This document shows, in pieces, positions 31,649 through 44,137 of a stretch of DNA of 64,000 nt. The stretch is from an uncultured virus (IMG/VR IMGVR_UViG_3300038314_001498). Taxonomy: Duplodnaviria; Heunggongvirae; Uroviricota; Caudoviricetes; Crassvirales. Positions within the stretch are counted from its first letter, which is position 1. Each line of letters starts with the position of its first letter. The position numbers were made by a program, and so were the translations under genes. The notes below the pieces were generated by a model. The model had not been told where the DNA came from. It was given only the letters and a program-made list of their open reading frames with translations, and searched no databases. The stretch lies in IMG/VR virus record IMGVR_UViG_3300038314_001498; one strand, 5' to 3'.

Positions 31649-32221
31649 TTACATATTCATAAAATTTGGCCATTGGAAATTATCAAAAAAAGAAGATTCT
31701 GAACTTGGTGTAGATTCCATATTCCTACCAGCATACATCATACTAGCACCTATACCGCGTATGCCAGACCAAATATCTTGTCTGTTAGTTTGTATCATAT
31801 TGTTAAGACCTTGTACATCACCCATGTAACGTGCTTCATCCATACCTTGTATGCGTTTTTCATCTTGTGCTATCGCATACTGTTTTTTATTTATCTGGTC
31901 GTCTAAGTAAACTCTAGCTTCTCGGTTAGCATTATTGTTTTGTGCCGCTATCATTGGTAGACTAGACATAACACTTCTTGTTCCGCCTGCTCTTGCTGCA
32001 TCTATAAGCATTGCACTAGTGCGTTGGTTTTCTTCTCGCATAAGATCACTTCCCTCGGTACTAATACTTATTTCTTCAAAAGCATTGGTAAGTTCTGGCA
32101 CTTCTAAGTTGTCTAAAGCTTTTTGCGCCTTGTTTTTTCCTATAATGCCACCAATGGTCTGTCCTATTCCCATTGCGCCACCTACACCTGCAGTTATTGC
32201 TGCTGTCGTTCCTATAGCCAA
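31649..32221 (-). CDS. small ejection protein
   Basis: Gly/Ala-rich hydrophobic N-terminus typical of podovirus DNA-injection proteins. Confidence 0.65.
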   Translation of the reverse strand: MAIGTTAAITAGVGGAMGIGQTIGGIIGKNKAQKALDNLEVPELTNAFEEISISTEGSDLMREENQRTSAMLIDAARAGGTRSVMSSLPMIAAQNNNANREARVYLDDQINKKQYAIAQDEKRIQGMDEARYMGDVQGLNNMIQTNRQDIWSGIRGIGASMMYAGRNMESTPSSESSFFDNFQWPNFMNM

Positions 32222-32365
32222 AATTATTACATTTAGTATTAAAAATATAGACTAAAAATAGAATTTATCTATCGTTTTTACAAATCTAATAAATAAAAAG
32301 TATTAATTAATTATACTTATACTATTAATTATTAATATTTTAGATGTAAATAAATAAGATTAACC

Positions 32366-32599
32366 ATGGGAATGACACAAATACGTATCTCAAAAGATAA
32401 GATTAAGTCCACCAATGCTTTTAGCAATCTTAGTCCTATACAGAAACAATTAACTGTTAAGCGTAATAACGTGCTACAAATAGAAAACGCTATTAATGTT
32501 ATAAGTAATAGAGGTTATGTGTATTGGCATAAGAACAGTAATTACTCTTATCATAACATTAGAATTATAGATGAGATTATTGATAATGATTTGCATTGA
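32366..32599 (+). CDS. hypothetical protein at the distal end of the array
   Basis: ORF track. Confidence 0.5.
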   Translation: MGMTQIRISKDKIKSTNAFSNLSPIQKQLTVKRNNVLQIENAINVISNRGYVYWHKNSNYSYHNIRIIDEIIDNDLH

Positions 32600-32631
32600 T
32601 TTCTGGATGCGTCCGCAGGCGATTAGCCTAC

Positions 32632-32821
32632 AACGTATTTGGCTATGATTAGTAGCGTGAAATAGTAAATAACCTTAATAAATAAACGATGAAAAAAACA
32701 GACGAATATTACCAAGCATTAGAAGTTTGTAATAATGCTAAAGATTACCATAATATGGATGTAATGGTTGCAAGAACCTACGTAAGAGCGTATGATGAAG
32801 CTATTAATTATAGCCATTGTT
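32632..32821 (+). repeat. attC-like site 1
   Basis: GGCTATGATTAGTAGC / GCTATTAATTATAGCC arms. Confidence 0.85.
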
Positions 32822-32997
32822 GTAAAAGCGATAGCGAGCAGTTGGTTTGCGATGTAGATTATCTAAACAACTTTACTAAAGACACAAAATACTTATGTAA
32901 GCCTGACGGTAATAAACACTTTGAAGTAGAAGATGACTTTGGGTGTTTGTATAAAGTACATAGGAAATGTTTTAAAAAAAACAGAGTAGCAAACTAA
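32689..32997 (+). CDS. fusion-type ORF crossing the GTT at 32819
   Basis: Junction peptide EAINYSHCCKS. Confidence 0.65.
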   Translation: MKKTDEYYQALEVCNNAKDYHNMDVMVARTYVRAYDEAINYSHCCKSDSEQLVCDVDYLNNFTKDTKYLCKPDGNKHFEVEDDFGCLYKVHRKCFKKNRVAN

Positions 32998-33005
32998 TTG
33001 TTTAC

Positions 33006-33062
33006 AACGTACTTGTATAACTTATCGTTGTGAGGTACGAGCAATGGAAGTTATACGGTGTT
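33006..33062 (+). repeat. attC-like site 2 (57 bp, canonical size)
   Basis: GTATAACTT / AAGTTATAC arms. Confidence 0.85.
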
Positions 33063-33134
33063 ATTTGGCGAGGTACGAGCGAACTGTTTAACCCTTAAAA
33101 AAGGCGTGGCTTTTCAAAAGCCAAATTATAGATT

Positions 33135-33713
33135 ATGAGTGAAAAAAAATATAAAATTATTTACGCAGATCCAGCTTGGTCTTATAGAGATGGTTCTTTA
33201 AGTCGTGGTGGTGCAAAAAGGCATTATGATACAATGACCGATGAAGAAATTAAACAGTTACCTATAAATGATATAGCAGACGATGACAGTATTTTATTTA
33301 TGTGGGCAACATTTCCTAAAATACAAGAAGGATTAGATGTTATAAAATCTTGGGGATTTGAGTATAAAACAATAGGATTTGTATGGATTAAAACCAATAA
33401 GCGATTTAATAAAAATCAAACATCATTTATGCCTTTAGAAAGTCTTGATGTTTTTTGGGGAATGGGAAGATGGACAAGAAGTAATACAGAAATATGTTTA
33501 ATAGGCGTAAAAGGTAAACCTTTAAGAGAAAATGCAGATGTGCATAGTGTTGTAGTTTCTGAAATACAAAAGCATAGCAAAAAGCCAGACGAAATAAGAG
33601 ATATGATAGTTAGATTATGTGGCGATTTACCAAGAGTTGAACTATTTGCAAGAAATGAAACTAAAGGTTGGGATGTTTGGGGAAATGAGGTTGAAACAAG
33701 TATAGCAATATAG
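33135..33713 (+). CDS. MT-A70 family adenine methyltransferase (cassette)
   Basis: IIYADPAW, LFMWAT, WGFEYKT, HSKKPD, VELFAR. Confidence 0.9.
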   Translation: MSEKKYKIIYADPAWSYRDGSLSRGGAKRHYDTMTDEEIKQLPINDIADDDSILFMWATFPKIQEGLDVIKSWGFEYKTIGFVWIKTNKRFNKNQTSFMPLESLDVFWGMGRWTRSNTEICLIGVKGKPLRENADVHSVVVSEIQKHSKKPDEIRDMIVRLCGDLPRVELFARNETKGWDVWGNEVETSIAI

Positions 33714-33866
33714 CCTAAATATGCATTATACATTTGTGTATGGTGCGTTTTTATGGCACGTATGAGTGGTCGCCAATTTTTTAATAATTATTGCAACGGC
33801 TTGTGTATGGTTTGAAAGCCAACGCACAAACTCTGATTAAATGAACTAATATTAACTTGGCTTTTT

Positions 33867-34350
33867 AACGTTGAGCGTATGAAACGTAGCGTTTAGAAAA
33901 ACAGAAACTTTGAATAAAATACAGAATTAATAATAAAATTTTAGCGATGGAAATTACGGAAATTAAAAACATTGTAAATAGTGACTTACCAGACCAATAT
34001 AAAGAAAGGGCTTTATTAAAGGTGTTGGCAAAAGATGATGATATTATACCAAATATGTTAGAAATCTTAAAAATTGAACGAGAGACGAAAAAAGACTTAC
34101 TAACTGATATTAATCTTGAATTATCAAGAGCGCATTTATACATTGAAAGAGCAGACGTTAAAAAAGATGACAAGCAATTTAGCAAATCTTTTGTGTTGGA
34201 TGAAATAGCCTCTTTCTATGTTAAATACAAAGGAAGAATAAGCCATTGTTTTAATAGATTTAACTGAGCGGAAAGGCAATTTTATTATGAGCAAATACAC
34301 ACTTACTAACGTTTTAAGCACTTACATAGCTATGTTTTATACGCATTGTT
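33867..34350 (+). repeat. attC-like site 3 (whole gene in loop)
   Basis: GCGTATGAAACGTAGC / GCTATGTTTTATACGC arms. Confidence 0.85.
33947..34267 (+). CDS. hypothetical protein in attC-like loop
   Basis: 106 aa ORF between the arms. Confidence 0.65.
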   Translation: MEITEIKNIVNSDLPDQYKERALLKVLAKDDDIIPNMLEILKIERETKKDLLTDINLELSRAHLYIERADVKKDDKQFSKSFVLDEIASFYVKYKGRISHCFNRFN

Positions 34351-34404
34351 ATGTACTGGCGCAACTAACCGTTTTGAGTGCGTACAGATATTGCGCTTGT
34401 ACAT

Positions 34405-34521
34405 AACGTTAAACGTGTATGGCAAGTTGCCTTCACGGAATTTAATAAATACTTAAACAACTTTAGAATTATGAATACAAATAACAAAAAAACAGAAAAG
34501 CAATTTGCTATACACGGTGTT
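34405..34521 (+). repeat. attC-like site 4
   Basis: CGTGTATGGCAAGTTGC / GCAATTTGCTATACACG arms. Confidence 0.85.
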
Positions 34522-34707
34522 ATAAGCCGTTTATCTATGCAAGAAGTATTGAATTATGAAATACACTCACATTGGTTAGCGAGTTGGATTGGATTTGAAT
34601 GGGGGCAAGATTTAATGGGTAAATACTTCGCTTGGAAAGTAAGAAGAAAATACAATAGATATTTAGTTTCATTGGAAGAACGTAAGCGTGTTTTAAATGG
34701 CTTATAA
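34471..34707 (+). CDS. fusion-type ORF crossing the GTT at 34519
   Basis: ATG in the loop; junction KQFAIHGVISR; stop inside TAAC. Confidence 0.65.
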   Translation: MNTNNKKTEKQFAIHGVISRLSMQEVLNYEIHSHWLASWIGFEWGQDLMGKYFAWKVRRKYNRYLVSLEERKRVLNGL

Positions 34708-34906
34708 CGTACTAGCATAAAATTTGAAACGGAAAAATGAAACAATACATATTAAAATACACTATAAAACTTTGGTATAGAATGACCTTTGAAAATAACA
34801 AATACGCTAAACAACTATTTGAATTAATTGAAGGATTCTATGAAGTTACAGAAAACTATATTTCTTTAATAATACACAAAAGTAGTTTTTGATTTTATGC
34901 ATTGTT
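34706..34906 (+). repeat. attC-like site 5
   Basis: GCATAAAAT / ATTTTATGC arms. Confidence 0.8.
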
Positions 34907-34964
34907 ATGTTTTAGTTGCGCTCTAAAGCGTAACACTTGCGTACTAATTGGCGCAATTAAACAT

Positions 34965-35252
34965 AACGGTCTGCGTGTATGGGATGTGATTTGCAAATAA
35001 TAAAATAACATTGAATTAATAACTAAAAAAGAGAGCGATATGGAATTTGAACTACAATATGAATTACAAGAATTTAGAGAAATACAAGACCAATATTTTG
35101 ACGAAGATGGCAAGTGCTACAACCGACATATTTTAAGCACCGACATTGCGGAAAAAATGCTGAACTTAATTAACAATCTTAGCGAACGTGTAAATGAACT
35201 CGAACCTGTGATTAAGCAACAAATTAAAAAATCATTGCCTATACACGATGTT
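34965..35252 (+). repeat. attC-like site 6
   Basis: CGTGTATGGGATGTGATTT / AAATCATTGCCTATACACG arms. Confidence 0.8.
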
Positions 35253-35420
35253 ACCCAATGTTTGCCCTAAGATAGCAGAGAGTTTAAAGAATGGCAAAGA
35301 AATATGGGAATTACTAGACAAGAAAATACCAACATTTATAACTGGAACGAATTTAAGTATGAACGAGCTTTTTTCCTAGAAAAATTTATGGAAGATAGAA
35401 ATAGGGCAAATTTTGGGTAA
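35040..35420 (+). pseudogene. fusion-type ORF with an in-frame TAA at 35268-35270
   Basis: The frame stays open for 49 more codons to the TAA in GGGTAAC. Confidence 0.55.
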
Positions 35421-35702
35421 CGAAAAGTTTATGAATAGTGCGTGAAATAATAACTAAAATTAGTAAAAATGGAAAATAAGAAATGGTGGATTAAATTTAA
35501 AAATAGTAAATGGCGATTAATTGCTTTATGTGTAGGCTCTTTAGTAGTTGGAACACAAATGTTTTTAATACCAAAAACGGTAAGTGAAATTGTAATAAGA
35601 GGCATTGGTGTTCTATGGATATTAGAAGGCATTTCTTATTCTTTTGACTTATGGATTAGACACTTAAATAAGCGAAAAGAAGCATTATTTATAAACGGTG
35701 TT
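35419..35702 (+). repeat. attC-like site 7
   Basis: GTTTATGAATAGTGC / GCATTATTTATAAAC arms. Confidence 0.85.
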
Positions 35703-35852
35703 GTAGGTAGTTATAAAAGTAAACCTTATGCCGACTTATGTAAGTTAAGAAAAGAAAAGATTGAGGATTTGAAACGACTTGAAAAAGTAATGAAAGACAT
35801 TTGTGCAGACGTTGGCAAATATACCGACACTGGTGGTAATTACAAACCCTAA
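35469..35852 (+). CDS. fusion-type ORF: two-TM N-module plus coiled C-module
   Basis: Junction EALFINGVVGSY at GTT 35700. Confidence 0.65.
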   Translation: MENKKWWIKFKNSKWRLIALCVGSLVVGTQMFLIPKTVSEIVIRGIGVLWILEGISYSFDLWIRHLNKRKEALFINGVVGSYKSKPYADLCKLRKEKIEDLKRLEKVMKDICADVGKYTDTGGNYKP

Positions 35853-35860
35853 TTACCTAC

Positions 35861-35983
35861 AACGCAGTTGTGTATGGTATGTTGTGTATAAACAGACATA
35901 AATTATCGAATTAAAAACTAAATAAATTAATAATAACAAGCCTTTGAAATAGCAGTAATTAGCAATAGACTATACACGTTGTT
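35861..35983 (+). repeat. attC-like site 8
   Basis: GTGTATGGTATGTTG / CAATAGACTATACAC arms. Confidence 0.8.
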
Positions 35984-36021
35984 AACTACTGTGCGACATT
36001 GGAAAAACAAAAACTTAATAA

Positions 36022-36441
36022 ATGAAAAACTTACTTTGGTTAGACGACATTAGAAACCCTTTTTTAAATGAAGAAGGAAAAGTACCAACAGATAAAAATG
36101 GTGAATACTATAATATAAACTGGGTTTTAAATTACGATCAGTTTGTAAAATGGATAGAACTTTTCGGATTGCCTGATGCAATTTCTTTTGACCACGATTT
36201 AGCCGATGAACATTATACACCTGAATATTTTTGGGATAACTATGAAGAAAGTAAAAAGTTTCAAGAATGGCGTGGGCAAAATTACCAAGAGAAAACAGGT
36301 ATGGATTGTGCTAAATGGTTAGTAGATTATTGTATGGGTAACGAAAAGAAATTGCCTGAAATATTCGTACACTCTGCAAACCCAGTTGGTGCTGATAATA
36401 TAAAAGGGTTGTTAGATAACTTCATTAAGCATTGTAGTTAA
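36022..36441 (+). CDS. cyclic-phosphate-processing receiver-like domain protein (cassette)
   Basis: LLWLDDIR, ISFDHDL, TGMDCAKWL, VHSANPVG. Confidence 0.8.
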   Translation: MKNLLWLDDIRNPFLNEEGKVPTDKNGEYYNINWVLNYDQFVKWIELFGLPDAISFDHDLADEHYTPEYFWDNYEESKKFQEWRGQNYQEKTGMDCAKWLVDYCMGNEKKLPEIFVHSANPVGADNIKGLLDNFIKHCS

Positions 36442-36655
36442 CGGAATTGTATAAGATTAGTTACGTGAAATAAGCACAAACCAAAATAAATAAACGATGA
36501 AAAAGCCAAAAAATTTAACATTAAAAAACTATTGGGAAGCAAACAGTTCTTGGGAAAGACAAGAGATTGTAGAAAATACCTTTAAATATTTAAATTTTTT
36601 AGAACAAAAACTTAATAAATTAACCAACACTAAGTAATTAATTTTATACGGTGTT
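36440..36655 (+). repeat. attC-like site 9 (46 aa ORF 36497-36637 in loop)
   Basis: GTATAAGATTAGTTAC / GTAATTAATTTTATAC arms. Confidence 0.85.
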
Positions 36656-36722
36656 GGTTGGCGAAGCGGACTGTAATTATTAAAAAATTGGCGTTGCTGA
36701 GGCACGAAGCAAAATTAAGAGT

Positions 36723-37544
36723 ATGAGTAAGAAAAAAATAATAGGTTGGGTAAGTTGCGGAATTACAAGCGCAGTAGCTTGTAAACAAGCAATTATGAAA
36801 TACGGTAAAGACAAAATTGAACTTTACTATATGAAGATTGACAGCGCACACCCAGACAATGACAGGTTTTTAAAAGACCTTGAAAAATGGTATGATTTAC
36901 CAATAACCACAATTAGAAGCGATAAATACAAAGACCAATTTGAAGTTATAGAACATACTGGTTATGTAAATGGTGCTGAAGGTGCAAGATGTACTTTAGA
37001 GTTAAAGAAGAAAGTACGTTGGGGAATTGAAGAAAATATTGATTTCTCTGCTCAAATATTTGGATTTGAATTTGTACCAAAAGAAGTGAATAGAGCATTA
37101 CGATTTAATGAACAATACCCAAAAGCAAAAGCAATATTTCCATTAATTGAAACTTATCTAACAAAGGAAAATTGCGCTGAAATATTACGATTTGCAAACA
37201 TAGAATTACCAACGATGTACAAACTTGGTTATCCAAATAATAATTGTATTGGATGCGTAAAAGGTGGAATGGGTTATTGGAATAAAATACGTGTTGATTT
37301 CCCAGAACACTTTGATAAAATGGCAAAAGCTGAACGAGTTGCAGGATTTAGTTGTTTGAAAACCGAAAAAGAGGGAAGAATATTTTTAGATGAATTAAAC
37401 CCAAAAAGAGGAAGAAAGATGAAAGTTGTAATGCCAGACTGTGGAACTTATTGCGAGGTTGAATTTGAAGGAATAGAACACCCTATGTTAAAGAAAATAT
37501 TAGATAAGGAAGTAAATATTGAGCAATTAAGATTGGTTATCTAA
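36723..37544 (+). CDS. PAPS-reductase-like (PP-loop) phage protein (cassette)
   Basis: SCGITSA, ARCTLELKK, NNNCIGCVKGG motifs. Confidence 0.75.
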   Translation: MSKKKIIGWVSCGITSAVACKQAIMKYGKDKIELYYMKIDSAHPDNDRFLKDLEKWYDLPITTIRSDKYKDQFEVIEHTGYVNGAEGARCTLELKKKVRWGIEENIDFSAQIFGFEFVPKEVNRALRFNEQYPKAKAIFPLIETYLTKENCAEILRFANIELPTMYKLGYPNNNCIGCVKGGMGYWNKIRVDFPEHFDKMAKAERVAGFSCLKTEKEGRIFLDELNPKRGRKMKVVMPDCGTYCEVEFEGIEHPMLKKILDKEVNIEQLRLVI

Positions 37545-37820
37545 AGCCTAAATATGCAATATATACAGCCGTATATGGTGCGTTTTTATGGCGCGTATGA
37601 GTGGTCGCCAATTTTTTAATAATTATTGCAACCAACGTTTGCGTACATGAATAGTAGCCCTTAAAAAGACTGAACTTTGGTTAAGCATTTATAAGCAACT
37701 ATTTATTTTTTGAGGGTTGGCAAATGGCGATAGCCAAATATTTATAATATTATTAAATAAAACTTGTATATATCATATATATAATGTATATTTGAATATT
37801 ATTAAATAAAACTTAAAATT

Positions 37821-38042
37821 ATGACTACTCAAATTAAAGAAAGAATCAATCTTATTAACGAACAAATAATTGAATTAGGACAAGCTAAAGTTGCTTCTGA
37901 TAGAGGTATATCTCAAGTTAAAAAAGAGCAATTAGTTAAGGATATTGAAATGTTACACAACCTTAAACAAACTTTAGTTAAACTTTCTAAAAAGATGGTG
38001 TTATCTACAAGTGAATTAGAATTTGTAAAAGAGATATTATAA
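37821..38042 (+). CDS. hypothetical protein in attC-like loop
   Basis: Preceded by a TTG...TATATTTG Bacteroidota promoter (37764-37794). Confidence 0.65.
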   Translation: MTTQIKERINLINEQIIELGQAKVASDRGISQVKKEQLVKDIEMLHNLKQTLVKLSKKMVLSTSELEFVKEIL

Positions 38043-38182
38043 TGAGAAAGCTTATAGACATACCAGAAGAAGATAATACTCTTGAAAATTTACAGATACT
38101 AGCTATTAAAGCAAAAAAGGATTTGAAAAATTATATCCAAGATGTTTTAATTGAACACGCTAAAAAGGGTGGGGAAAAATAA
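38042..38182 (+). CDS. 46 aa RHH-like DNA-binding protein
   Basis: MRKLIDIPEE...LQILAIKAKKDLKNYIQDVL, translated by eye; coupled to the previous stop. Confidence 0.55.
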   Translation: MRKLIDIPEEDNTLENLQILAIKAKKDLKNYIQDVLIEHAKKGGEK

Positions 38183-38309
38183 GTAGTTGCGTTGCTGATA
38201 AGACCGAACCATTGATAAAGCACTTACTTAGGCTATTATTTATGTACGGTGTTAGTAACTGGCGGTTTAATACCCGCCAGAGTGAGTTACCGTAAAACCG
38301 CTTGTTACT

Positions 38310-38503
38310 AACGTTAACGTGTAACAGTAGTAGTGTGAAATAATAACTTAAATTAACAAAAATGAAAAAACCAAAAATTACAGATTTTATTAAAGAAACA
38401 ATTGCCAACCCAAGTATTGAGTTGATGTACTTAAAAGACTATGTAAAAGAATTAGAAGCTTATGTAGATAAACAAGAAGAAGCTATTACTGTTACACATT
38501 GTT
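38310..38503 (+). repeat. attC-like site 11
   Basis: GTGTAACAGTAGTAG / CTATTACTGTTACAC arms. Confidence 0.85.
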
Positions 38504-38658
38504 GTGCACAGTTGCCGACTTTTGATGAAAGTAATTTAAATAAAAACGAATACGCTGATGATGTGCAAAAAACAATACACAATAACCTTTGTAAACCATC
38601 TTATAAGATTGGGTGGCAAAACTGCTATGCTTGGCTAAAACAAGAACTAAAGAAGTAA
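38362..38658 (+). CDS. fusion-type ORF crossing the GTT at 38501
   Basis: Junction EAITVTHCCAQL. Confidence 0.65.
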   Translation: MKKPKITDFIKETIANPSIELMYLKDYVKELEAYVDKQEEAITVTHCCAQLPTFDESNLNKNEYADDVQKTIHNNLCKPSYKIGWQNCYAWLKQELKK

Positions 38659-38671
38659 GGCAATTGTTTAC

Positions 38672-38876
38672 AACGGTATGCAGATATGAATAGATTTTTT
38701 AACGATTAAACACAAAACAAATGAACGAATTAGAACAGATTTTTACAGAAATGCTAAACCATATAGACGACCATAAGGAATCATACGATAAGTCACAATG
38801 GACAAATGAAGCTATTGTTAAGACTTGGATAAAGACTAACGAAAGTAAGTTGAAAAATTTATTTATATCTGGTGTT
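38672..38876 (+). repeat. attC-like site 12
   Basis: CAGATATGAATAGATTTTT / AAAAATTTATTTATATCTG arms. Confidence 0.85.
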
Positions 38877-39041
38877 ACAAACTGTGCGATTCTTGAAACT
38901 ATGCATCAGCAAGTATTCACAGAATTTCACAACCTTAGAAAGCAAAAAGGAAACGCAAGGTATATACAAATAGATGGCAAAGAAGCAAATGAGATTATTA
39001 GACTTGGTAAGTTAGCGACTAAAAAAGAGCATTGTTTGTAA
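38721..39041 (+). CDS. fusion-type ORF crossing the GTT at 38874
   Basis: Junction NLFISGVTNCA; stop inside TAAC. Confidence 0.65.
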   Translation: MNELEQIFTEMLNHIDDHKESYDKSQWTNEAIVKTWIKTNESKLKNLFISGVTNCAILETMHQQVFTEFHNLRKQKGNARYIQIDGKEANEIIRLGKLATKKEHCL

Positions 39042-39162
39042 CGGCTATTGTATGAGTAGTAGCCGATTAGAATCACAGAAGTATCGAATTAGAAATTAAC
39101 TTAATAAATAGTAATAGTTTTAAAACCAAGCACTGCAACGGCTATTACTTATACAAATTGTT
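39040..39162 (+). repeat. attC-like site 13
   Basis: TTGTATGAGTAGTAGCCG / CGGCTATTACTTATACAA arms. Confidence 0.85.
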
Positions 39163-39180
39163 GTAGTGCGTTATTTAGCG

Positions 39181-39555
39181 ATGGAAACAGCAGAAATTAA
39201 AAAAACCGTATTAGAAATAAGAAAAAAAGCAATTAATGTTGCTTGTGCTTTAAAAGGATTTAAAGAAGAAGATTGTTATGAAACGGTTTTTGAAGAAGAT
39301 GAGATTGAGGTAGTTTTTTCTTGGAATAGTGGGTGTAGTTGTTGTTCTGATGAGGAACAAAGAGTTTACGTGAAATACGAAGAATTAACGCAAGACATTG
39401 AGGCTCTTAAAAAAGAAAAAGAACAACAACGTATAGAAGAAAAAAGAAAGAAGGATGAGGCAGAAAAGTTAAGAAAGCAAAAAGAAGCTGATGCCAAGAA
39501 AAAACGGGAAGAAGCAGAATATTTAAGATTAAAGAAGAAGTTTGAAAGTGCGTAG
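39181..39555 (+). CDS. hypothetical coiled-coil protein (cassette)
   Basis: ATG at 39181, in frame with the GTT at 39160; ends EYLRLKKKFE. Confidence 0.65.
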   Translation: METAEIKKTVLEIRKKAINVACALKGFKEEDCYETVFEEDEIEVVFSWNSGCSCCSDEEQRVYVKYEELTQDIEALKKEKEQQRIEEKRKKDEAEKLRKQKEADAKKKREEAEYLRLKKKFESA

Positions 39556-39568
39556 GCTAATGCACTAC

Positions 39569-40050
39569 AACGGACAAGCATAAGAGCAGTGCGTGATTAA
39601 GCACAGAACTAAATTAATATTAACAAGCCTTTCCGCTTCTTTTTCTTTTGAGCGTGGGCAAAAAACCAAAATTATGGACTTAAAAATTAGAGAAGATGCC
39701 TACAAAATGGCAATTGAAAAATGGGGTGCAAAAGCACAATTGGAAATGGCACAAGAAGAAGCTACTGAACTTGCACTTGCCGTTAGAAAACACATTCGTA
39801 AAAATGATGAAACCAGCTTTAGCAACTTGGTTGAAGAAATTGCAGACGTTGAAATTATGATTGAGCAAATTGTAATGATGCATAATGATTTTGGTTTTAG
39901 GCAAATGGTAGATGCACAAAAAGCATTTAAGATTAGTAGACTACTTAAACGGATGAACGAGAACTCTTTTGAAGCGTTGGAAAAAGAAAAAGAAGCTACC
40001 GAGTAGTTTGCAAATAGACACGACACTAAGCATTGCTTTTATGCAGTGTT
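39569..40050 (+). repeat. attC-like site 14 (MazG-like gene in loop)
   Basis: GCATAAGAGCAGTGC / GCATTGCTTTTATGC arms. Confidence 0.85.
39674..40006 (+). CDS. MazG-like NTP pyrophosphohydrolase
   Basis: AQEEATELALA...LVEEIADVEIMIEQ. Confidence 0.8.
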   Translation: MDLKIREDAYKMAIEKWGAKAQLEMAQEEATELALAVRKHIRKNDETSFSNLVEEIADVEIMIEQIVMMHNDFGFRQMVDAQKAFKISRLLKRMNENSFEALEKEKEATE

Positions 40051-40073
40051 GTAGTGTCGTTTTAATGCACTAC

Positions 40074-40144
40074 AACGTAAAAGCATATGGTTTCGGTTGC
40101 CTTAACCGTACTAATGCTTCGGCAACTGAACTATATGCGGTGTT
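40074..40144 (+). repeat. attC-like site 15 (71 bp)
   Basis: GCATATGGTTTCGGTTGCC / GGCAACTGAACTATATGC arms. Confidence 0.85.
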
Positions 40145-40223
40145 GGTTGGCGCAGCGGACTGTAATTATTAAAAAATTGGCGTGCCTGACGTTAGGAAGG
40201 CAAATTACGTAATACTTTTAAAA

Positions 40224-40472
40224 ATGAAATCACTATTTAAAGAAATACAAGAAGAACATTTACCATCTGGTATTAAAGAAATGATGGCTTATGCACTTTA
40301 CGAAAACAAAAACAAACTTCAAGCTGTTTTAAATTATCTAAAAAAGGAAAATGCTAAAAATAAAAGTTCAAATATCAAAAACTCAATAGACCACTTAAAT
40401 TACATACTAAAAGAATATTATCACGATACAAAATCATTTAAAGATGGACAAAAAGAACATTTATCTAACTGA
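40224..40472 (+). CDS. hypothetical protein (cassette)
   Basis: ATG at 40224. Confidence 0.55.
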   Translation: MKSLFKEIQEEHLPSGIKEMMAYALYENKNKLQAVLNYLKKENAKNKSSNIKNSIDHLNYILKEYYHDTKSFKDGQKEHLSN

Positions 40473-40704
40473 AAGTTTAAGCGGATTAATGGCGGGTGAA
40501 AGGATTAAAGCTAATAGTTTTAAAGAAGCTGAAAATAAATGCCCTGATGGGTATAGAGTTATTGGTAAGTTTATATGTGAAATAAACGCTCCTGAATTTG
40601 ACAATATAAACTTGAATTAGCAAATATGATTTATATGCAGCCGTATATGAAGCGTTTTTGCTTGCGTTTGAGTGGTCGCCAATTTTTTAATAATTATTGC
40701 AACC

Positions 40705-40957
40705 AACGTATTTGTATAACCGTTGTTACGTGAATTAAAAACTTAAAATTATAAAAATGAACGAAAGACAAAACAAAATAGCAAAAAGAGCAGATAAACT
40801 GCAAGAAGATTTACAAAGTATAATTAATGTAGGGAAAAAAGTAAAAGGTAGTGAAGCTCATTACATTGATTTTGTAACTGCCTTTTTTATACACAGAATA
40901 GCTGCACTAGAAATTGAATTAGAAAACCTAAAAAAGTAATAACGGTTATACATTGTT
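40705..40957 (+). repeat. attC-like site 16
   Basis: GTATAACCGTTGTTAC / GTAATAACGGTTATAC arms. Confidence 0.85.
40757..40939 (+). CDS. hypothetical protein in attC-like loop
   Basis: Stop codon lies in the right arm. Confidence 0.6.
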   Translation: MNERQNKIAKRADKLQEDLQSIINVGKKVKGSEAHYIDFVTAFFIHRIAALEIELENLKK

Positions 40958-40983
40958 GTATGACGAAGTGAACAGTAAAAATT

Positions 40984-41163
40984 ATGGAATTAGAAACAAT
41001 AATAACAAAAGATAAAGAGCAATTTTTACAAAAAGAAAAACCTTGGTTTCATTGGCGAAGTTTTAAAGCATTTAGAAAATTTATGGAAGAAGATGCTGTT
41101 GAGTGTAAAAATTGTGGGACTTGGTATTGGGAAGGATGTAATAAGAGATGTGATTGCAAATAA
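40984..41163 (+). CDS. 59 aa Cys-rich protein (cassette)
   Basis: ...VECKNCGTWYWEGCNKRCDCK, translated by eye. Confidence 0.55.
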   Translation: MELETIITKDKEQFLQKEKPWFHWRSFKAFRKFMEEDAVECKNCGTWYWEGCNKRCDCK

Positions 41164-41177
41164 TTTTTATTGCATAC

Positions 41178-41305
41178 AACGTTTAGTATAAGAATAGTAG
41201 CCGAGCAAACAGGTAAAAAAATTGAGTTAAACAAATAATTAATAAGTAAGTAAGTAATAGCCTCTAAAAAGACCTATAACAAGGCTATTATTTTTATACA
41301 TTGTT
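41178..41305 (+). repeat. attC-like site 17
   Basis: GTATAAGAATAGTAGCC / GGCTATTATTTTTATAC arms. Confidence 0.85.
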
Positions 41306-41321
41306 ATAGGGCGTTTTTATT

Positions 41322-41537
41322 ATGAAGTACATAAATGTAAACAAAATAATTGCTGCCGATATTTTAGAACCTTATGAAAATAGCGGTGAAAGTTGGGATA
41401 TTGGAAGTACAAGAGGATGGCAAGTTTCATTTTTATTAGGATATAGAGAAGGCTATCCAGAATGGATTTTAGTAGATAAAGAAACTAAAGAAGATTGTAT
41501 AAAACTTATTGAATCGTTTGGGTTAAATGCCCTATAA
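41322..41537 (+). CDS. hypothetical protein (cassette)
   Basis: Fills GTTATAGGGCGTTT...AAATGCCCTATAAC; stop inside TAAC. Confidence 0.65.
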   Translation: MKYINVNKIIAADILEPYENSGESWDIGSTRGWQVSFLLGYREGYPEWILVDKETKEDCIKLIESFGLNAL

Positions 41538-41658
41538 CGGTTTTGTATAAGCGCAGTAGCGGATTTTATGCAACTGCTATTCGGTTAAAATGAAACTTAA
41601 ATATAAACAAAAACGGTTCAAGTTTGCACCTGAACCGCTATTGCGTTTATACCATGTT
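41536..41658 (+). repeat. attC-like site 18
   Basis: GTATAAGCGCAGTAGCGG / CCGCTATTGCGTTTATAC arms. Confidence 0.85.
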
Positions 41659-41866
41659 ATGCCATGTCATCTCTCTTCCATATTTTTTTAATTAATGGTT
41701 TCATAATATGAACATTTAAAATATAAGTTATGGGTGTACATATTACAATACCGATTAAATACCATATCAGATTATTTGCGGTACAACCGTGAATGATAAA
41801 TGTAAATAATAGAATAACACAAGTTTGGAAGAAGGCATTTTTCAGTTCTAACCACCTAATTCGCAT
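41657..41866 (-). CDS. small two-TM protein (possible immunity protein)
   Basis: Overlaps the end of the Gly-zipper gene; stop inside minus-strand TAAC. Confidence 0.55.
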   Translation of the reverse strand: MRIRWLELKNAFFQTCVILLFTFIIHGCTANNLIWYLIGIVICTPITYILNVHIMKPLIKKIWKRDDMA

Positions 41867-42618
41867 CGAACACCTTCTTCAACCGCGCCAACAACAGCAC
41901 CTCGTACCATGCCAACTATCATACCACCCATGCATCCGGCCGCAACAGACCCAGGGTTAAAACCTAAAAATGCACCAGTAATGCAGCCACGAACAAAACC
42001 TTGTGCTGCACCGAATAACGCTCCCCAAGCGGCACCTTTAACTGCTCTGTCGGCACAATTATCCTTTTGATAAACTCTAAGAGTATAATAGTCATAAATC
42101 CCATCAAAAGCAGCTATAACTGGCATAAATCTTTCTTCTAGTTGTTCATTTGAATTTGAAATAGCATTAAGAAAATTTTCTTTTTCTGTATCGAAATATA
42201 GCATAAAACCATCCAAATCGTCTCGGTTGTAATAATCAAGAGTTTTGGTTAAAAATTCTTTTTCAAGTTCTGAAATATTCATATTCTCAATCTCTTGTTC
42301 GCTGAGAAAAGTTACCATTTCTTGGTTATAAACTGTTGCTACTTCTGGTGATGATTCGTACAAAGAAGTTTCGAACAATTCGAAAACATCATTGGAAATT
42401 GCTTCATTTGTAGGTATAGATTTATAGTCTAAATTTTCGGAAGCAAGCAGGTTATTATACAAATTTGTTTTTATAACCTCATAAATATTGTTACTTTTAG
42501 TAAGATGACTTTGTTGGAATTTACTATTGTCATTTGCAATATCATCTTCACTACAACTATTAAATGTAAGTGCCATAAAGAACATTAAAAACGGCACGTA
42601 TTTCCCAAATTGTTTCAT
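41848..42618 (-). CDS. lipoprotein with a C-terminal glycine-zipper (bacteriocin-like) domain
   Basis: Signal peptide plus SCSEDD lipobox; GAAWGALFGAAQG...GGMIVGMVRGAVVGA. Confidence 0.7.
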   Translation of the reverse strand: MKQFGKYVPFLMFFMALTFNSCSEDDIANDNSKFQQSHLTKSNNIYEVIKTNLYNNLLASENLDYKSIPTNEAISNDVFELFETSLYESSPEVATVYNQEMVTFLSEQEIENMNISELEKEFLTKTLDYYNRDDLDGFMLYFDTEKENFLNAISNSNEQLEERFMPVIAAFDGIYDYYTLRVYQKDNCADRAVKGAAWGALFGAAQGFVRGCITGAFLGFNPGSVAAGCMGGMIVGMVRGAVVGAVEEGVRCELGG

Positions 42619-42879
42619 TTTAAATAAGATTTATGTCGCTTTATCCTAACTTTTAAGCGACTATTTTAATTATGTTTCTTAACTCACTTCGCAGTGCAAT
42701 CAAACTGTTGTTTTGAAGCTCGGCTACTCGATTATTTTAAATGGTTTTTCGCTTTCACATACTCCATTTTGGATTTGGATTGTCAGCCCCATAATAACTT
42801 TGTTTTATTTGTTATCAAAATTAAAAATGACGTTCTAAAAAACTATTTAAAGGTTTGCTAAAATGCTGTTAATGATATG

Positions 42880-42923
42880 GCATAACTAAAGAATAACTAC
42901 ACCAAACAAAAAACTTAATAATA
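42880..42923 (-). other. putative attI-like site
   Basis: The last AAC has no attC stem; minus strand reads GTAGTTATTCTTTA-GTTATGC; lies just upstream of the recombinase. Confidence 0.55.
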
Positions 42924-43724
42924 ATGTGCAATTCAAAAAACATAAGTGTTGTTTTAAAAGAGTTTGAACAATTACTACAGCTAAAATACTCTGGTAGAAC
43001 ACCTGCAAACTATCTTTATCATGTAAAACTATTTTTAAACTATTCTGATAACGTTCCGTTAAGAGTAAATAATGAGGATATACTTAATTACAATATATCA
43101 ATAAGAAATAAAAGCAATAGTTTTAGAAACGTGGCTATAAATGCTATAAAGTCTTATTTTAAGTTGTACCTTAGAAAGCAAGTTAAAGGTTTTAGTTCCA
43201 TTAGACCACCAAAAGAATACAAAAAGCCAAAAGTATATGATTGTTATATTTTAAGTGAAAAGATACAAAATATAGAAAACAAAAAACACAAGGCAATACT
43301 AGCTTTATCTCTTTGCTGTTGGCTCAGAAAATCCGAACTTTTAAATATAAAAATATCGGATATTAATGGTAGCTTAATGACGTTGAAAATAAACCAATCA
43401 AAAGGCTGTAAAGATAGAGTTGTTATTATAAGTGAAAACACAATTAATATTTTAAGAGAATATCATAAAGAATACAAACCAAAAGAATATTTATTTGAAG
43501 GGTTAAATGGTGGTAAATATAGCTCTACGAGTGTAGATAAAATAACTAAGAAGTATCTTTATAAAGACATGAGATTTCATTCATTAAGGGCTTCAGGTGC
43601 TACATTTGCATTAAGTAACGGAACAGATCTAAAAACAGTTTCTAAAATACTAGGTCACAAACACATTCAAACAACGGAATATTACATTCCTATACTTTAT
43701 AAAACTATTAAACAAGCGATATGA
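42924..43724 (+). CDS. compact tyrosine recombinase (integron-integrase/XerD-like)
   Basis: YS.RT..NY N-domain; LRKSE, SKGCKDR, FHSLRAS, LGHK, TTEYY catalytic set; no arm-binding domain. Confidence 0.9.
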   Translation: MCNSKNISVVLKEFEQLLQLKYSGRTPANYLYHVKLFLNYSDNVPLRVNNEDILNYNISIRNKSNSFRNVAINAIKSYFKLYLRKQVKGFSSIRPPKEYKKPKVYDCYILSEKIQNIENKKHKAILALSLCCWLRKSELLNIKISDINGSLMTLKINQSKGCKDRVVIISENTINILREYHKEYKPKEYLFEGLNGGKYSSTSVDKITKKYLYKDMRFHSLRASGATFALSNGTDLKTVSKILGHKHIQTTEYYIPILYKTIKQAI

Positions 43725-44137
43725 GTTTTAATGTCCGACTTACAACTATAAATGATTACCCAGAACTTATAACCTGGTGGAAATGGCATCGTTGGTCCAA
43801 CCCACCTTCAATAGAGCTATTAGATAATCTTAAGTTTGGTATTATGGTTAGCCAAGGATATGAAAATATTTGTGCTGGATTCATTTACTTTACAAATGCA
43901 CGAGCCTTCGGACTATTAGAATATGTCATATCTAATCACAAAGTAAAAAACAAAGCCGTTAGGAAAGAAGCTTTAAAACTACTTGTAGCATCGTTAATAG
44001 ATATAGCTAAAAAAAAAGGAATGAATACTATTATTACTTTTGTAAAACAGCCTAACTTAATAAATACATTATCAGAGTGTGGTTTTATAAAATCTGCAGA
44101 AGGATATAGTAGTATGGTATTTAAACATAACTCTTAA
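43721..44137 (+). CDS. GNAT-like phage protein
   Basis: VRLTTINDYPELITWW...ICAGFIY...CGF fold pattern. Confidence 0.6.
   Translation: MSFNVRLTTINDYPELITWWKWHRWSNPPSIELLDNLKFGIMVSQGYENICAGFIYFTNARAFGLLEYVISNHKVKNKAVRKEALKLLVASLIDIAKKKGMNTIITFVKQPNLINTLSECGFIKSAEGYSSMVFKHNS

Follow-up and report, generated by a model that had tools for sequence, protein, structure and literature searches.

Integrons (IntI/attI/attC), especially the sedentary chromosomal ones, hold a one-directional row of mostly single-gene cassettes. Their imperfect hairpin sites combine an invariant pair of triplets, AAC...GTT, with a central spacer that stays unpaired and a second helix; crossover takes place at the triplet, and a docking site lies beside the tyrosine recombinase gene. 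The phage locus described here has a likeness to each of these features. In Acinetobacter plasmids, pdif (XerC/XerD) gene modules lie between Xer-type sites of alternating orientation and carry their inner half-sites along. PeSL (promoter-early stem-loop) cassettes of T4-type phages contain promoter and terminator motifs and are thought to act by homologous recombination; as in our locus, repeated structured motifs flank small phage genes in hyperplastic regions, and the genes are shuffled among phages, but PeSL cassettes are not known to have AAC/GTT triplets, a recombinase or gene-spanning complementary arms.

Phages with attC-like sites have been described. Qi, Rajabal, Ghaly, Tetu and Gillings (2023, Front Microbiol, PMC9892861) reported 17 CALINs in phage genomes, each with at least 2 predicted attC sites; virulent phages with attC-like sites included a Polaribacter phage with methyltransferase cassettes, and IntI1 recombined one such site, in Polaribacter phage P12002L. 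In the available text of that article, neither Cellulophaga nor crAss-like phages nor gene-bearing loops come up ("Cellulophaga," "crAss" and "Bacteroid" each occur 0 times). Bacteroidales rAID-1 clusters are chromosomal, have the recombinase at the 5' end and carry immunity genes, and hairpin pairs flanking genes are not described in the available part of that report (Ross et al., bioRxiv 10.1101/471110).

Layout of the array and its cargo

The window, a stretch of 64,000 nucleotides from a marine crAss-like phage, contains small gene cassettes in an integron-like row at 32632-42886. We consider that this region is probably part of a phage-borne integron-like cassette array in which a small XerA-like tyrosine recombinase acts on two-compartment dumbbell cassettes, with crossover at AAC. 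A cassette would extend between successive AAC half-sites and comprise compartment 1 (AAC...GTT) and compartment 2 (GTT...next AAC). We mapped 18 paired AAC...GTT units, 57-620 nt long, in which AAC and GTT half-sites, 18 each, alternate strictly from 32632 to 41658; the exceptions are an orphan AAC at 33795 and an attI-like AAC at 42884. Half-site mapping of the array found no GTT partner for the orphan, and the interval 33795-33867, one of the 19 in the array, is a 72-nt remnant that lacks a GTT half-site. The 18 paired units and the resident Xer-like recombinase set this array apart from the phage CALINs so far as these are described in the available text, with which it shares attC-like sites. 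The features are as follows.

32632..42886, +: complete array; 20 AAC half-sites with 19 intervals between them
32632..32821, +: AAC...GTT unit, 190 nt; 5' part of ORF 32689-32997, which crosses the GTT half-site
33006..33062, +: AAC...GTT unit, 57 nt, classical size; non-coding
33795..33797, +: orphan AAC half-site, 3' of the first X repeat copy
33867..34350, +: AAC...GTT unit, 484 nt; loop with whole ORF 33947-34267 (106 aa)
34348..34407, +: minimal GTT...AAC compartment, gene-free hairpin of 60 nt
34405..34521, +: AAC...GTT unit, 117 nt; 5' part of ORF 34471-34707
34706..34906, +: AAC...GTT unit, 201 nt; whole ORF 34737-34892 (51 aa); long-range stem absent from predicted MFE
34904..34967, +: minimal GTT...AAC compartment, 64-nt hairpin; 91% identity to a hairpin in record G003
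34965..35252, +: AAC...GTT unit, 288 nt; ORF 35040-35270 (76 aa), stop 18 nt beyond GTT; long-range stem absent from predicted MFE
35419..35702, +: AAC...GTT unit, 284 nt; 5' part of ORF 35469-35852
35861..35983, +: AAC...GTT unit, 123 nt; non-coding
36440..36655, +: AAC...GTT unit, 216 nt; ORF 36497-36637 (46 aa); loop 36450-36638 has 96% identity to Cellulophaga phage phi12:1
36674..37625, +: long GTT...AAC compartment with PAPS-reductase-like gene 36723-37544; its ends are 20-nt perfect inverted repeats (36674-36693 / 37606-37625)
37634..38253, +: AAC...GTT unit, 620 nt; loop with ORFs 37821-38042 and 38042-38182
38251..38312, +: minimal GTT...AAC compartment, 62-nt hairpin
38310..38503, +: AAC...GTT unit, 194 nt; 5' part of ORF 38362-38658
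38672..38876, +: AAC...GTT unit, 205 nt; 5' part of ORF 38721-39041
39040..39162, +: AAC...GTT unit, 123 nt; non-coding; 73% identity to a site in Cellulophaga phage phi19:3
39569..40050, +: AAC...GTT unit, 482 nt; loop with MazG-family gene 39674-40006; arm covariation versus the G003 homologue
40048..40076, +: minimal GTT...AAC compartment, 29 nt
40074..40144, +: AAC...GTT unit, 71 nt; non-coding
40705..40957, +: AAC...GTT unit, 253 nt; loop with whole ORF 40757-40939 (60 aa)
41178..41305, +: AAC...GTT unit, 128 nt; non-coding
41536..41658, +: AAC...GTT unit, 123 nt, the final paired unit; non-coding
42874..42900, +: attI-like last AAC half-site (AAC 42884-42886), 39 nt upstream of the recombinase ATG
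42924..43724, +: tyrosine recombinase, 266 aa, XerA/Xer-like

A preliminary description of this DNA had given lengths of 57 nt (AAC 33006 to GTT 33062) and 620 nt (AAC 37634 to GTT 38253); these are exact, as is every coordinate in it, and what it had observed at those positions was seen again. It had also placed complete ORFs inside giant loops, which held at all coordinates named, except that "37821..38182" is actually two ORFs. Counting complete ORFs with an ATG start and at least 40 aa that lie entirely within an AAC...GTT unit, we found 7 in 6 loops (33947-34267, 34737-34892, 36497-36637, 37821-38042, 38042-38182, 39674-40006, and 40757-40939), while 5 further loops contain only the start of an ORF. 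The sole loop ORF with a family match is 39674-40006 (PHROG 2245, nucleoside triphosphate pyrophosphohydrolase, E 7e-27). ORF 38042-38182 (46 aa) has a homologue, 80% identical, in Polaribacter phage Freya, and ORF 36497-36637 matches codons 1-44 of a phi12:1 gene (132 aa); the remaining loop ORFs, including 33947-34267, had no match in family and homologue searches. As most small loop ORFs lack a homologue, some may not be genes.

That cargo can ride in either compartment, as previously proposed, is borne out by homologous genes placed differently. The window and a related record (G003) have the MazG gene inside an AAC...GTT loop, but in another contig (L025) it is placed between two short sites, and the 46-aa gene lies in a loop in the window but in a GTT...AAC compartment in the phages Freya and Danklef.

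The recombinase was rejected as an IntI, with scores below every IntI cut-off; it also differs from that of integrons in that its gene follows the cassettes downstream and shares their direction. The flank upstream of the attI-like AAC is complementary to the flank 3' of GTT 41658, and a similar motif is found in the same place beside the recombinase gene in Freya and G003. Adjacency is the sole tie between recombinase and half-sites.

Pairing of the arms

In an all-against-all duplex test, the best of 18 GTT partners was the arm's own next GTT for 17 of the 18 AAC arms and the own GTT ranked second for the remaining arm; it ranked first in all 11 units of at least 190 nt. Duplex energies averaged -13.7 kcal/mol for true pairs versus -5.4 (sd 1.8) for other pairs. 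When 30-45 kb was scanned blind, 14 of the 18 units were found again, 13 of them with 16-22 paired bases and one with 14; five other hits had 12-14 paired bases, not counting duplicate calls of known units at adjacent AAC or GTT triplets.

Compartment 2 has its own complementarity. GTT-ext/ext-AAC repeats of at least 9 nt number 19 in the 10.3-kb array versus 13 in the remaining 53.7 kb, and the mean after shuffling was 1.57 (200 shuffles). The 16 nt at a given GTT agree with the reverse complement at the next AAC in 8-14 positions (other pairs: mean 6.8, sd 1.7). Unlike attC R boxes, the flanks of a site's own AAC and GTT are not complementary, their 4-10 matches being at background; instead, and in contrast to integrons, the GTT flank pairs with the next AAC flank over 8-30 nt.

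The stems are strand-biased. Wobbles of the form G(5' arm)·T(3' arm) occur in 17/18 stems, 30 against 6 in the reverse sense, and among the 17 scored compartment-2 stems, 13 contain a single G·T in this sense and no reverse one. The + strand gives the more stable form of all 18 stems (sums of -252.0 vs -205.6 kcal/mol). In predicted ssDNA folds the long-range stem was retained in 14/18 units on the + strand versus 8/18 on the - strand, the 484-, 620-, 482- and 253-nt units among the former; it was missing from the predicted fold for the gene-bearing loops of 201, 288 and 216 nt and for one loop of 128 nt. For attC, one strand folds better by 2.12 kcal/mol on average, according to the portion of Nivina et al. 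(2016, PMC5027507) available, compared with about 2.6 kcal/mol per phage stem. Integrons thus have a strand preference in common with this array, but the favoured strand in the array is the gene-sense strand, and G·T wobbles occur where attC has extrahelical bases.

Could the half-sites instead be ordinary double-stranded Xer-type sites with modules lying between alternately oriented copies, as in pdif, and with no folding or long-range pairing? The inverted repeats would then be merely half-sites travelling with each module. A XerA/Xer-like recombinase, alternating site orientation and one consensus (AAC-(G/A)-spacer-GTATAA) common to AAC and reverse-complemented GTT half-sites all fit this explanation, as does the independent assortment of compartments described below, which a pdif-like module with its own inner half-sites would allow. 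We nonetheless think it unlikely. The cassette-specific complementarity of 13-23 bp, rising to 20-30 bp in long compartment-2 stems, exceeds any 11-bp arm, and a bias of wobbles and stability towards one strand is meaningless in duplex DNA. Unlike pdif, the array half-sites showed no conserved 11-6-11 core; their spacers are unequal by site type (6-8 vs 3-4 nt) and vary in sequence between partners, yet all junctions switch exactly past AAC.

Sense-strand stems with G·U-compatible wobbles, bracketing nearly every gene in the array, might also act in RNA, as long-range 5'/3' pairing that provides processing or stability signals in a polycistronic early transcript, with DNA exchange at AAC secondary. 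We give this little credence: the cassette borders of relatives arise from events in DNA, precisely at AAC, stems also fall within coding sequence in 5 ORFs, the final stem pair (41658 / 42884) encloses a minus-strand gene, and no RNA family matched, the 2 weak hits both being far under gathering scores.

Cassette exchange among relatives

Six isolates of Freya, whose recombinase is 45% identical to that of the window, differ only in cassettes just 5' of the recombinase gene, and 5/5 junctions read AAC followed by a new spacer. Between Freya_6 and Freya_5, a 465-nt cassette is present or absent as an exact unit; its 293-nt loop holds a whole ORF. Danklef_1 and Freya_10 share a 1,169-nt cassette with 5 mismatches, AAC borders and unrelated flanks, the loop of which spans 1,109 nt and contains two genes. 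On this comparative sequence evidence, cassettes with gene-bearing loops have moved intact in related phages, with crossover at the AAC half-site. No cassette polymorphism was seen in the window's own phage, the array being the same in contigs of 4 runs.

The MazG unit of the window is 92.5% identical to that of G003 over 428 nt from AAC onward, with unrelated flanks. Covariation in the arms of homologous loops had been proposed as a check, and in this 482-nt unit the stem differs by 4 double-sided compensatory changes and by no single-sided one, and it retains both G·T pairs. Behind this loop, compartment 2 is 29 nt in the window and 182 nt and gene-bearing in G003; conversely, the 64-nt hairpin at about 34904-34967 is common to both, behind a different loop in each. 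Between phages, then, the two compartments assort independently, which crossover at AAC only does not explain.

These comparisons bear on whether the long units are dead relics, in which genes were inserted into once-short hairpin loops, arm complementarity persists by descent only, and live recombination uses an AAC half-site and a nearby short hairpin. Such a hairpin of at most 128 nt lies directly beside 9/17 internal AAC half-sites, but at the other 8/17 both sides exceed 160 nt. Arm motifs of long-loop units do match short non-coding sites (e.g., 37634 with 39040 and 41178), and attC recombination from duplex DNA falls as the VTS gets longer, as stated in the available part of Nivina et al. 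(2016, PMC5027507). The compensatory, never single-sided, changes in the MazG arms and the presence of cassettes with 1,109- and 293-nt loops as exact units in differing contexts make relics improbable.

A proposed dumbbell cassette model

In the integron-like array that we favour, compartment 1 closes with the cassette-specific stem of 13-23 bp, from 4-8 nt past AAC to 2-4 nt short of GTT, and compartment 2 with a second stem beginning at GTT and AAC themselves. Folded as ssDNA, the gene-sense strand would form a dumbbell with the two compartments as end loops, and its central rod would resemble attC in its conserved pair of triplets (AAC/GTT), its unequal and unpaired spacer and its second helix. 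The folded single strand would be the substrate and the adjacent recombinase the enzyme, crossover would occur at AAC, and the long-range stem would be required for the reaction. Either loop can hold cargo, and cargo can also span both. A gene in compartment 2 gives a classical-looking cassette, and one in compartment 1 an attC-like site with a giant loop, often with a bare 29-64-nt hairpin as compartment 2.

Against the attC range of 57-141 bp given in the published material available, 11/18 phage sites are longer, with coding sequence inside. The earlier suggestion that the recombinase tolerates very long loops gains support from the comparative evidence, namely the exact cassette units of relatives (293- and 1,109-nt loops) and the MazG arm covariation. 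Relative to similar phage arrays, what is new is the genes carried in loops.

Layout of the cassette array and the adjacent recombinase

The window is the genome of a crAss-like phage. ORF 44121-48005 on its minus strand matched crassvirus muzzle protein families; the window also contains a 2,679-aa ORF at 22131-30170 and matched Cellulophaga and Polaribacter phages at both the DNA and the protein level. At 32.3-42.9 kb, a block of small plus-strand ORFs is flanked by large minus-strand blocks. Alignment of the repeats in 32500-41500 gave two recurring half-sites, AAC-G-(5-7 nt)-GTATRR and YATAC-(3-4 nt)-GTT. Eighteen AAC and 18 GTT half-sites lie between 32632 and 41658, alternating strictly except for an orphan AAC at 33795. 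We refer to each AAC...GTT site with its loop (compartment 1) as a unit and to the interval from GTT to the next AAC as compartment 2. Both triplets were present in all 18 units, and partner-specific arms in 17.

Lengths from AAC to GTT (nt), in order along the array
Units 1-10: 190, 57, 484, 117, 201, 288, 284, 123, 216, 620
Units 11-18: 194, 205, 123, 482, 71, 253, 128, 123

The preliminary description had proposed that whole genes are carried inside attC-like loops, with AAC-to-GTT lengths running from 57 nt (33006-33062) to 620 nt (37634-38253). Both extremes proved exact, and the gene-bearing loops were confirmed: seven complete ORFs lie wholly within six AAC...GTT units. An eighth loop ORF, 35040-35270, stops 18 nt beyond its GTT, five more begin inside a unit and extend through the GTT half-site up to the next AAC, and the GTT...AAC intervals wholly enclose eight ORFs. 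Eleven of the 18 units are 190-620 nt long and hold whole ORFs or ORF starts; the remaining seven (57-128 nt) were counted as non-coding, among them the 117-nt unit 34405-34521, which holds the start of ORF 34471-34707.

The array ends with an AAC (42884-42886) whose preceding flank is complementary to the flank following the last GTT (41658). This AAC sits 39 nt upstream of the recombinase ATG; a half-site AAC occupies the equivalent place before the recombinase gene in the Polaribacter phages Freya and in G003, another IMG/VR record, and the motif that follows it is common to the window and G003. From these sequence features, we read it as a putative docking (attI-like) site. The last compartment, 1.2 kb from GTT 41658 to AAC 42884, contains minus-strand ORFs (41657-42618) of 256 and 69 aa with no family match, which are the array's only reverse-oriented cargo. 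Beyond it lies the recombinase gene:

42924-43724: tyrosine recombinase, 266 aa

This gene is downstream of the cassettes and in the same direction, with the attI-like site lying ahead of the cassette genes in their direction of reading. The best model for its product was archaeal XerA (129.5 bits against a cut-off of 220); the IntI subfamily model TIGR02249 gave 82.9 bits against a cut-off of 265, split into two stretches, and PRK15417 gave 45.4 against 435. Among solved structures, XerA 4a8e and 5hxy were closest, and IntI4 2a3v aligned over residues 15-181 only. By these comparisons, the predicted enzyme is Xer-like and not IntI. The Freya recombinase is 45% identical to it, and three further relatives (57% identical) are on contigs that begin ~150-170 nt before the gene, too close to it for an array to be read; contig L043 is the same phage. 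In the Polaribacter phages Danklef_1 (L041 5861-5992) and Danklef_5 (L042 6852-6983), which have identical gene order by their gene tables, the annotation shows the recombinase gene as a remnant of 132 nt, and the cassette array is retained.

Arm pairing, strand bias, and predicted folding

Every AAC arm was scored against every GTT arm (18 × 18) using DNA energies. For 17 of 18 AAC arms, the true neighbor outranked every other partner, and for the remaining arm it came second; mean duplex energy was -13.7 kcal/mol for true pairs vs. -5.4 (sd 1.8) for other pairs, and all 11 units of at least 190 nt ranked their own GTT first. When 30-45 kb was scanned blindly for the architecture, 14 of the 18 units were recovered (thirteen had 16-22 paired bases and the fourteenth had 14), and four units with bulged stems were missed; after setting aside duplicate calls of the units at adjacent AAC/GTT triplets, five other matches of 12-14 remained. 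For compartment 2, the 16 nt from GTT(k) were compared with the reverse-complemented 16 nt up to and including AAC(k+1), which gave 8-14 matches, against a mean of 6.8 (sd 1.7) in unrelated pairs; the AAC and GTT flanks of the same site had only 4-10 of 16, equal to background. The 10.3-kb array contains 19 GTT...AAC-type repeats of at least 9 nt vs. 13 in the other 53.7 kb, and 200 shuffles gave a mean of 1.57. Because of these arm and flank pairing tests, we conclude that each segment of the array has an inverted repeat of its own closing it, irrespective of length and coding content, and that the conserved triplets AAC and GTT lie at the joints between these segments.

G·T wobbles with G on the 5' arm occur in 17 of 18 AAC...GTT stems (30 such pairs vs. 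6 reversed), usually two per stem and 5 nt apart, and the plus strand is more stable in all 18 (summing to -252.0 vs. -205.6 kcal/mol). Among the GTT...AAC stems, 13 of the 17 scored (the last pair left out) have one G·T and none reversed. In predicted single-stranded DNA MFE folds of the plus strand, the long-range stem was kept in 14 of 18 units, including those of 484, 620, 482, 284, and 253 nt, and lost in the 201-, 288-, 216-, and 128-nt units; on the minus strand it was kept in 8 of 18. Ahead of the stem, the unpaired spacer is ~6-8 nt after AAC and ~3-4 nt before GTT.

Alternatively, these sites could serve the virion RNA polymerase of crAss-like phages, as early promoters or as hairpins. 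We rejected this idea because the same sites occur in unrelated Cellulophaga and Polaribacter phage families; the early transcripts of phi14:2, which lack a common upstream motif in the available text of one report (10.1101/2020.03.07.982082), also count against it. An Rfam search of 32000-43000 with E up to 1 gave two weak matches, at 41546-41662 and far under gathering scores.

Movement and cargo of cassettes in related phages

Cellulophaga phage phi12:1 has one 65-nt site of the same kind as those of the window, and its methylase gene is flanked by complementary GTT/AAC sequences. The loop 36450-36638 is common to the window and phi12:1 at 96% identity, with differing neighbors. ORF 36497-36637 (46 aa) corresponds to the first 44 codons of phi12:1 gp5 (132 aa; L004 2548-2946), whose frame runs on through the GTT half-site; this relation suggests that a gene was truncated, or a chimeric one formed, at that half-site. 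Paired units also occur in phi19:3 (at least three), one of them homologous to the non-coding unit 39040-39162.

Six Freya isolates, compared with reading across the start of the circular record, differ in length by up to 4.9 kb, and all differences are confined between one conserved gene and the recombinase gene. At all five of five junctions, an AAC is followed directly by another site's spacer. Freya_9 is without one unit whose 188-nt loop holds an ORF start, and Freya_6 has, compared with Freya_5, one extra 465-nt cassette, located at the attI-like AAC, whose 293-nt loop holds a whole 71-aa ORF. Freya_10 carries a unit with a 1,109-nt two-gene loop followed by a 60-nt hairpin; these 1,169 nt recur in Danklef_1 with five mismatches and unrelated neighbors, the homology running from the A of one AAC to the next AAC. 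Since the relatives' junctions all fall at AAC, the mobile unit extends from AAC to AAC and comprises an AAC...GTT unit and the GTT...AAC compartment that follows. Judging from these alignments, units with very long gene-bearing loops have evidently moved in the relatives.

The MazG unit (39569-40050, 482 nt, with the gene at 39674-40006 in the loop) is 92.5% identical to G003 over 428 nt from the AAC, and both flanks are unrelated. Covariation between arms, which the preliminary description had suggested as a check, was found here: of the 17 stem positions, four changed on both sides and are still paired in G003, none changed on a single side, and both G·T pairs are retained.

For the window's own array, contigs of four marine metagenome runs (X7, X8, X10, and X11) contained no variant and no AAC-to-AAC joints; they have the same array, broken at three X repeats. 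A ~95-nt repeat is present in three copies (33700-33797, 37545-37636, and 40620-40707) that close the three largest GTT...AAC compartments, with 20 perfectly paired nt between each copy and the beginning of the compartment it closes (pairing partners lie at 36655-36695 and 40144-40184), and the contigs of the four runs and the IMG/VR record G002 break at or near these repeats. One low-depth X11 contig (depth 2.2, shorter side 23 nt) skips 82 nt, 41201-41284, in the non-coding loop 41178-41305, and this may be a short-loop variant or an assembly artifact. The nearest record, G001, is without the array; G002, 100% identical, comes from the same phage and stops within the array, at 37741.

That cargo can ride in either compartment, as had also been proposed, is borne out by two genes, each with homologues in both placements. 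The MazG gene lies in a loop in the window and G003 and between two short sites in contig L025; the 46-aa gene 38042-38182 (80% identical to Freya gp3) lies in a loop in the window, and Freya and Danklef carry it in the opposite compartment. Seven window cassettes (six loops plus 34965-35252) carry a complete or almost complete ORF in the loop; four of these have a bare hairpin of 29-64 nt as their other compartment, a layout that repeats in Freya, Danklef, and G003. The gene-in-loop cassettes are mirror images of the classical layout, with its short hairpin and gene outside.

Six of the seven complete loop ORFs had no PHROGs or Pfam match; no relative of ORF 33947-34267 was found in viral contigs, and a viral contig search with ORF 37821-38042 matched the same phage only. 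Outside the loops, the cargo includes the following:

33135-33713: MT-A70 methyltransferase
36022-36441: cREC receiver domain protein
36723-37544: PAPS-reductase-like protein

Along with MazG, these look like plausible host-takeover or counter-defense genes.

The cassettes also contain recurring short sequences. The window, phi12:1, and Freya all contain the motif TGAGG(T/C)ACGA, in loops and where GTT...AAC compartments start:

33030-33040: window
33068-33078: window
36700-36712: window
L004, about 1620: phi12:1
L008, about 925: Freya

An 18-nt stretch ending in TATATTTG lies upstream of loop genes (37770-37797) and of Freya gp1 (L008 225-250). TATATTTG fits the Bacteroidota -7 promoter box, TAnnTTTG, so that a host-type promoter may be part of some cassettes. 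Within the 10-25 nt that follow the 5' arms at 32655, 35445, 36465, 38335, and 40730, in units with an ORF start in the loop, there is a conserved CGTGAAATAA-like stretch ~20-25 nt before the ATG; it may be an expression signal. ORFs that cross a GTT translate the half-site in one of two frames, as I-x-G/D-V or H-C-C, and the DNA signal is embedded within the coding sequence at these places:

32810-32825: GTT-crossing ORF
34510-34525: GTT-crossing ORF
35240-35255: GTT-crossing ORF
35690-35705: GTT-crossing ORF
38490-38505: GTT-crossing ORF
38862-38878: GTT-crossing ORF

Comparison with integrons and a possible mechanism

Like integron sites, the window units have an imperfect inverted repeat with conserved 5'-AAC...GTT-3' triplets and an unpaired central spacer between two helices; gain and loss of cassettes by triplet crossover, with insertion beside the recombinase gene, are seen in the relatives only. 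The differences are several. The enzyme scores below the cut-offs for IntI, the integrase defined by an IntI-specific additional domain. The own-site complementarity of RYYYAAC/GTTRRRY (R''/R') is absent, and GTT(k) instead pairs with AAC(k+1). Integrons have a divergent integrase and genes reading away from attI, whereas here the two are co-directional and the genes read towards the attI-like site. Where attC has extrahelical bases that mark the recombined strand, the stems are mostly bulge-free and have two conserved one-strand G·T wobbles 5 nt apart, which may play that part. The available text of one report gives attC lengths of 57-141 bp and states that a longer terminal structure lowers attC recombination from duplex DNA (PMC5027507); 11 of the 18 window units depart from this length and from a non-coding variable terminal structure. 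With respect to CALINs, IntI is absent from the window, and no Rfam family matched. Of the traits of pdif modules (28-bp sites with two 11-bp arms and a 6-bp spacer), the array shows sites in alternating orientation with a common half-site consensus; no 11-6-11 core is conserved, and the spacer lengths are unequal.

Phages are already known to contain clusters of attC sites, and IntI1 recombined one such site from a Polaribacter phage (PMC9892861); Xer-family recombinases are known beside integron-like arrays in Bacteroidales (10.1101/471110). The titles and abstracts searched yielded no description of genes inside attC loops. By comparison rather than assay, the initial reading is supported, with the array as a putative variant of the integron kind.

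We propose that a cassette, as a single-stranded circle, would fold into a dumbbell. Its central rod would be the attC-like part, in which the AAC/GTT pair and the helix beside it are separated from a second helix by an unequal, unpaired spacer, and its end loops would be the two compartments; the classical cassette would be a special case with one tiny loop. Indirect signs of a folded single-stranded substrate that uses one strand are the strand-biased wobbles and the fold predictions. Because junctions switch exactly after AAC despite unrelated partner spacers, we infer a one-strand exchange, which would be resolved by replication, as has reportedly been published for integrons. Because the favored strand is the gene-sense strand and the recombinase is downstream, the genes would, relative to integrons, be turned towards the docking site.

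Between phages, the two compartments occur in different combinations, and near-isogenic breakpoints are all at AAC. This reassortment could be explained by rare crossovers at GTT half-sites or by ordinary homologous exchange; the GTT half-site, reverse-complemented, has nearly the AAC half-site consensus. A joint reading, which we offer tentatively and consider rather unlikely to hold in full, is that cassettes are single-stranded dumbbells with both end loops as cargo bays, that the XerA-like enzyme reads the central rod, that the two G·T wobbles are strand markers replacing attC extrahelical bases, and that both half-sites cross over, AAC often and GTT rarely. Were it true, each bay would be a separately exchangeable module, GTT-crossing ORFs could recombine into chimeric proteins (as phi12:1 gp5 and ORF 36497-36637 suggest), and the array would be a two-level shuffling system whose site arms need not be close.

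Integron biology takes the site to be a compact hairpin, about 60-140 bp long and placed at the gene's end, with longer loops less active. Here, sites of that kind enclose whole genes, reaching 620 nt in the window and 1.1 kb in a relative. Programs that search for integrons with a ceiling on attC length would probably overlook most of them. If this is confirmed, a folded recombination site would not require neighboring arms, a cassette could originate as a gene caught between two half-sites, and integron-type gene shuffling would reach virulent marine phages and a Xer-like enzyme other than IntI.
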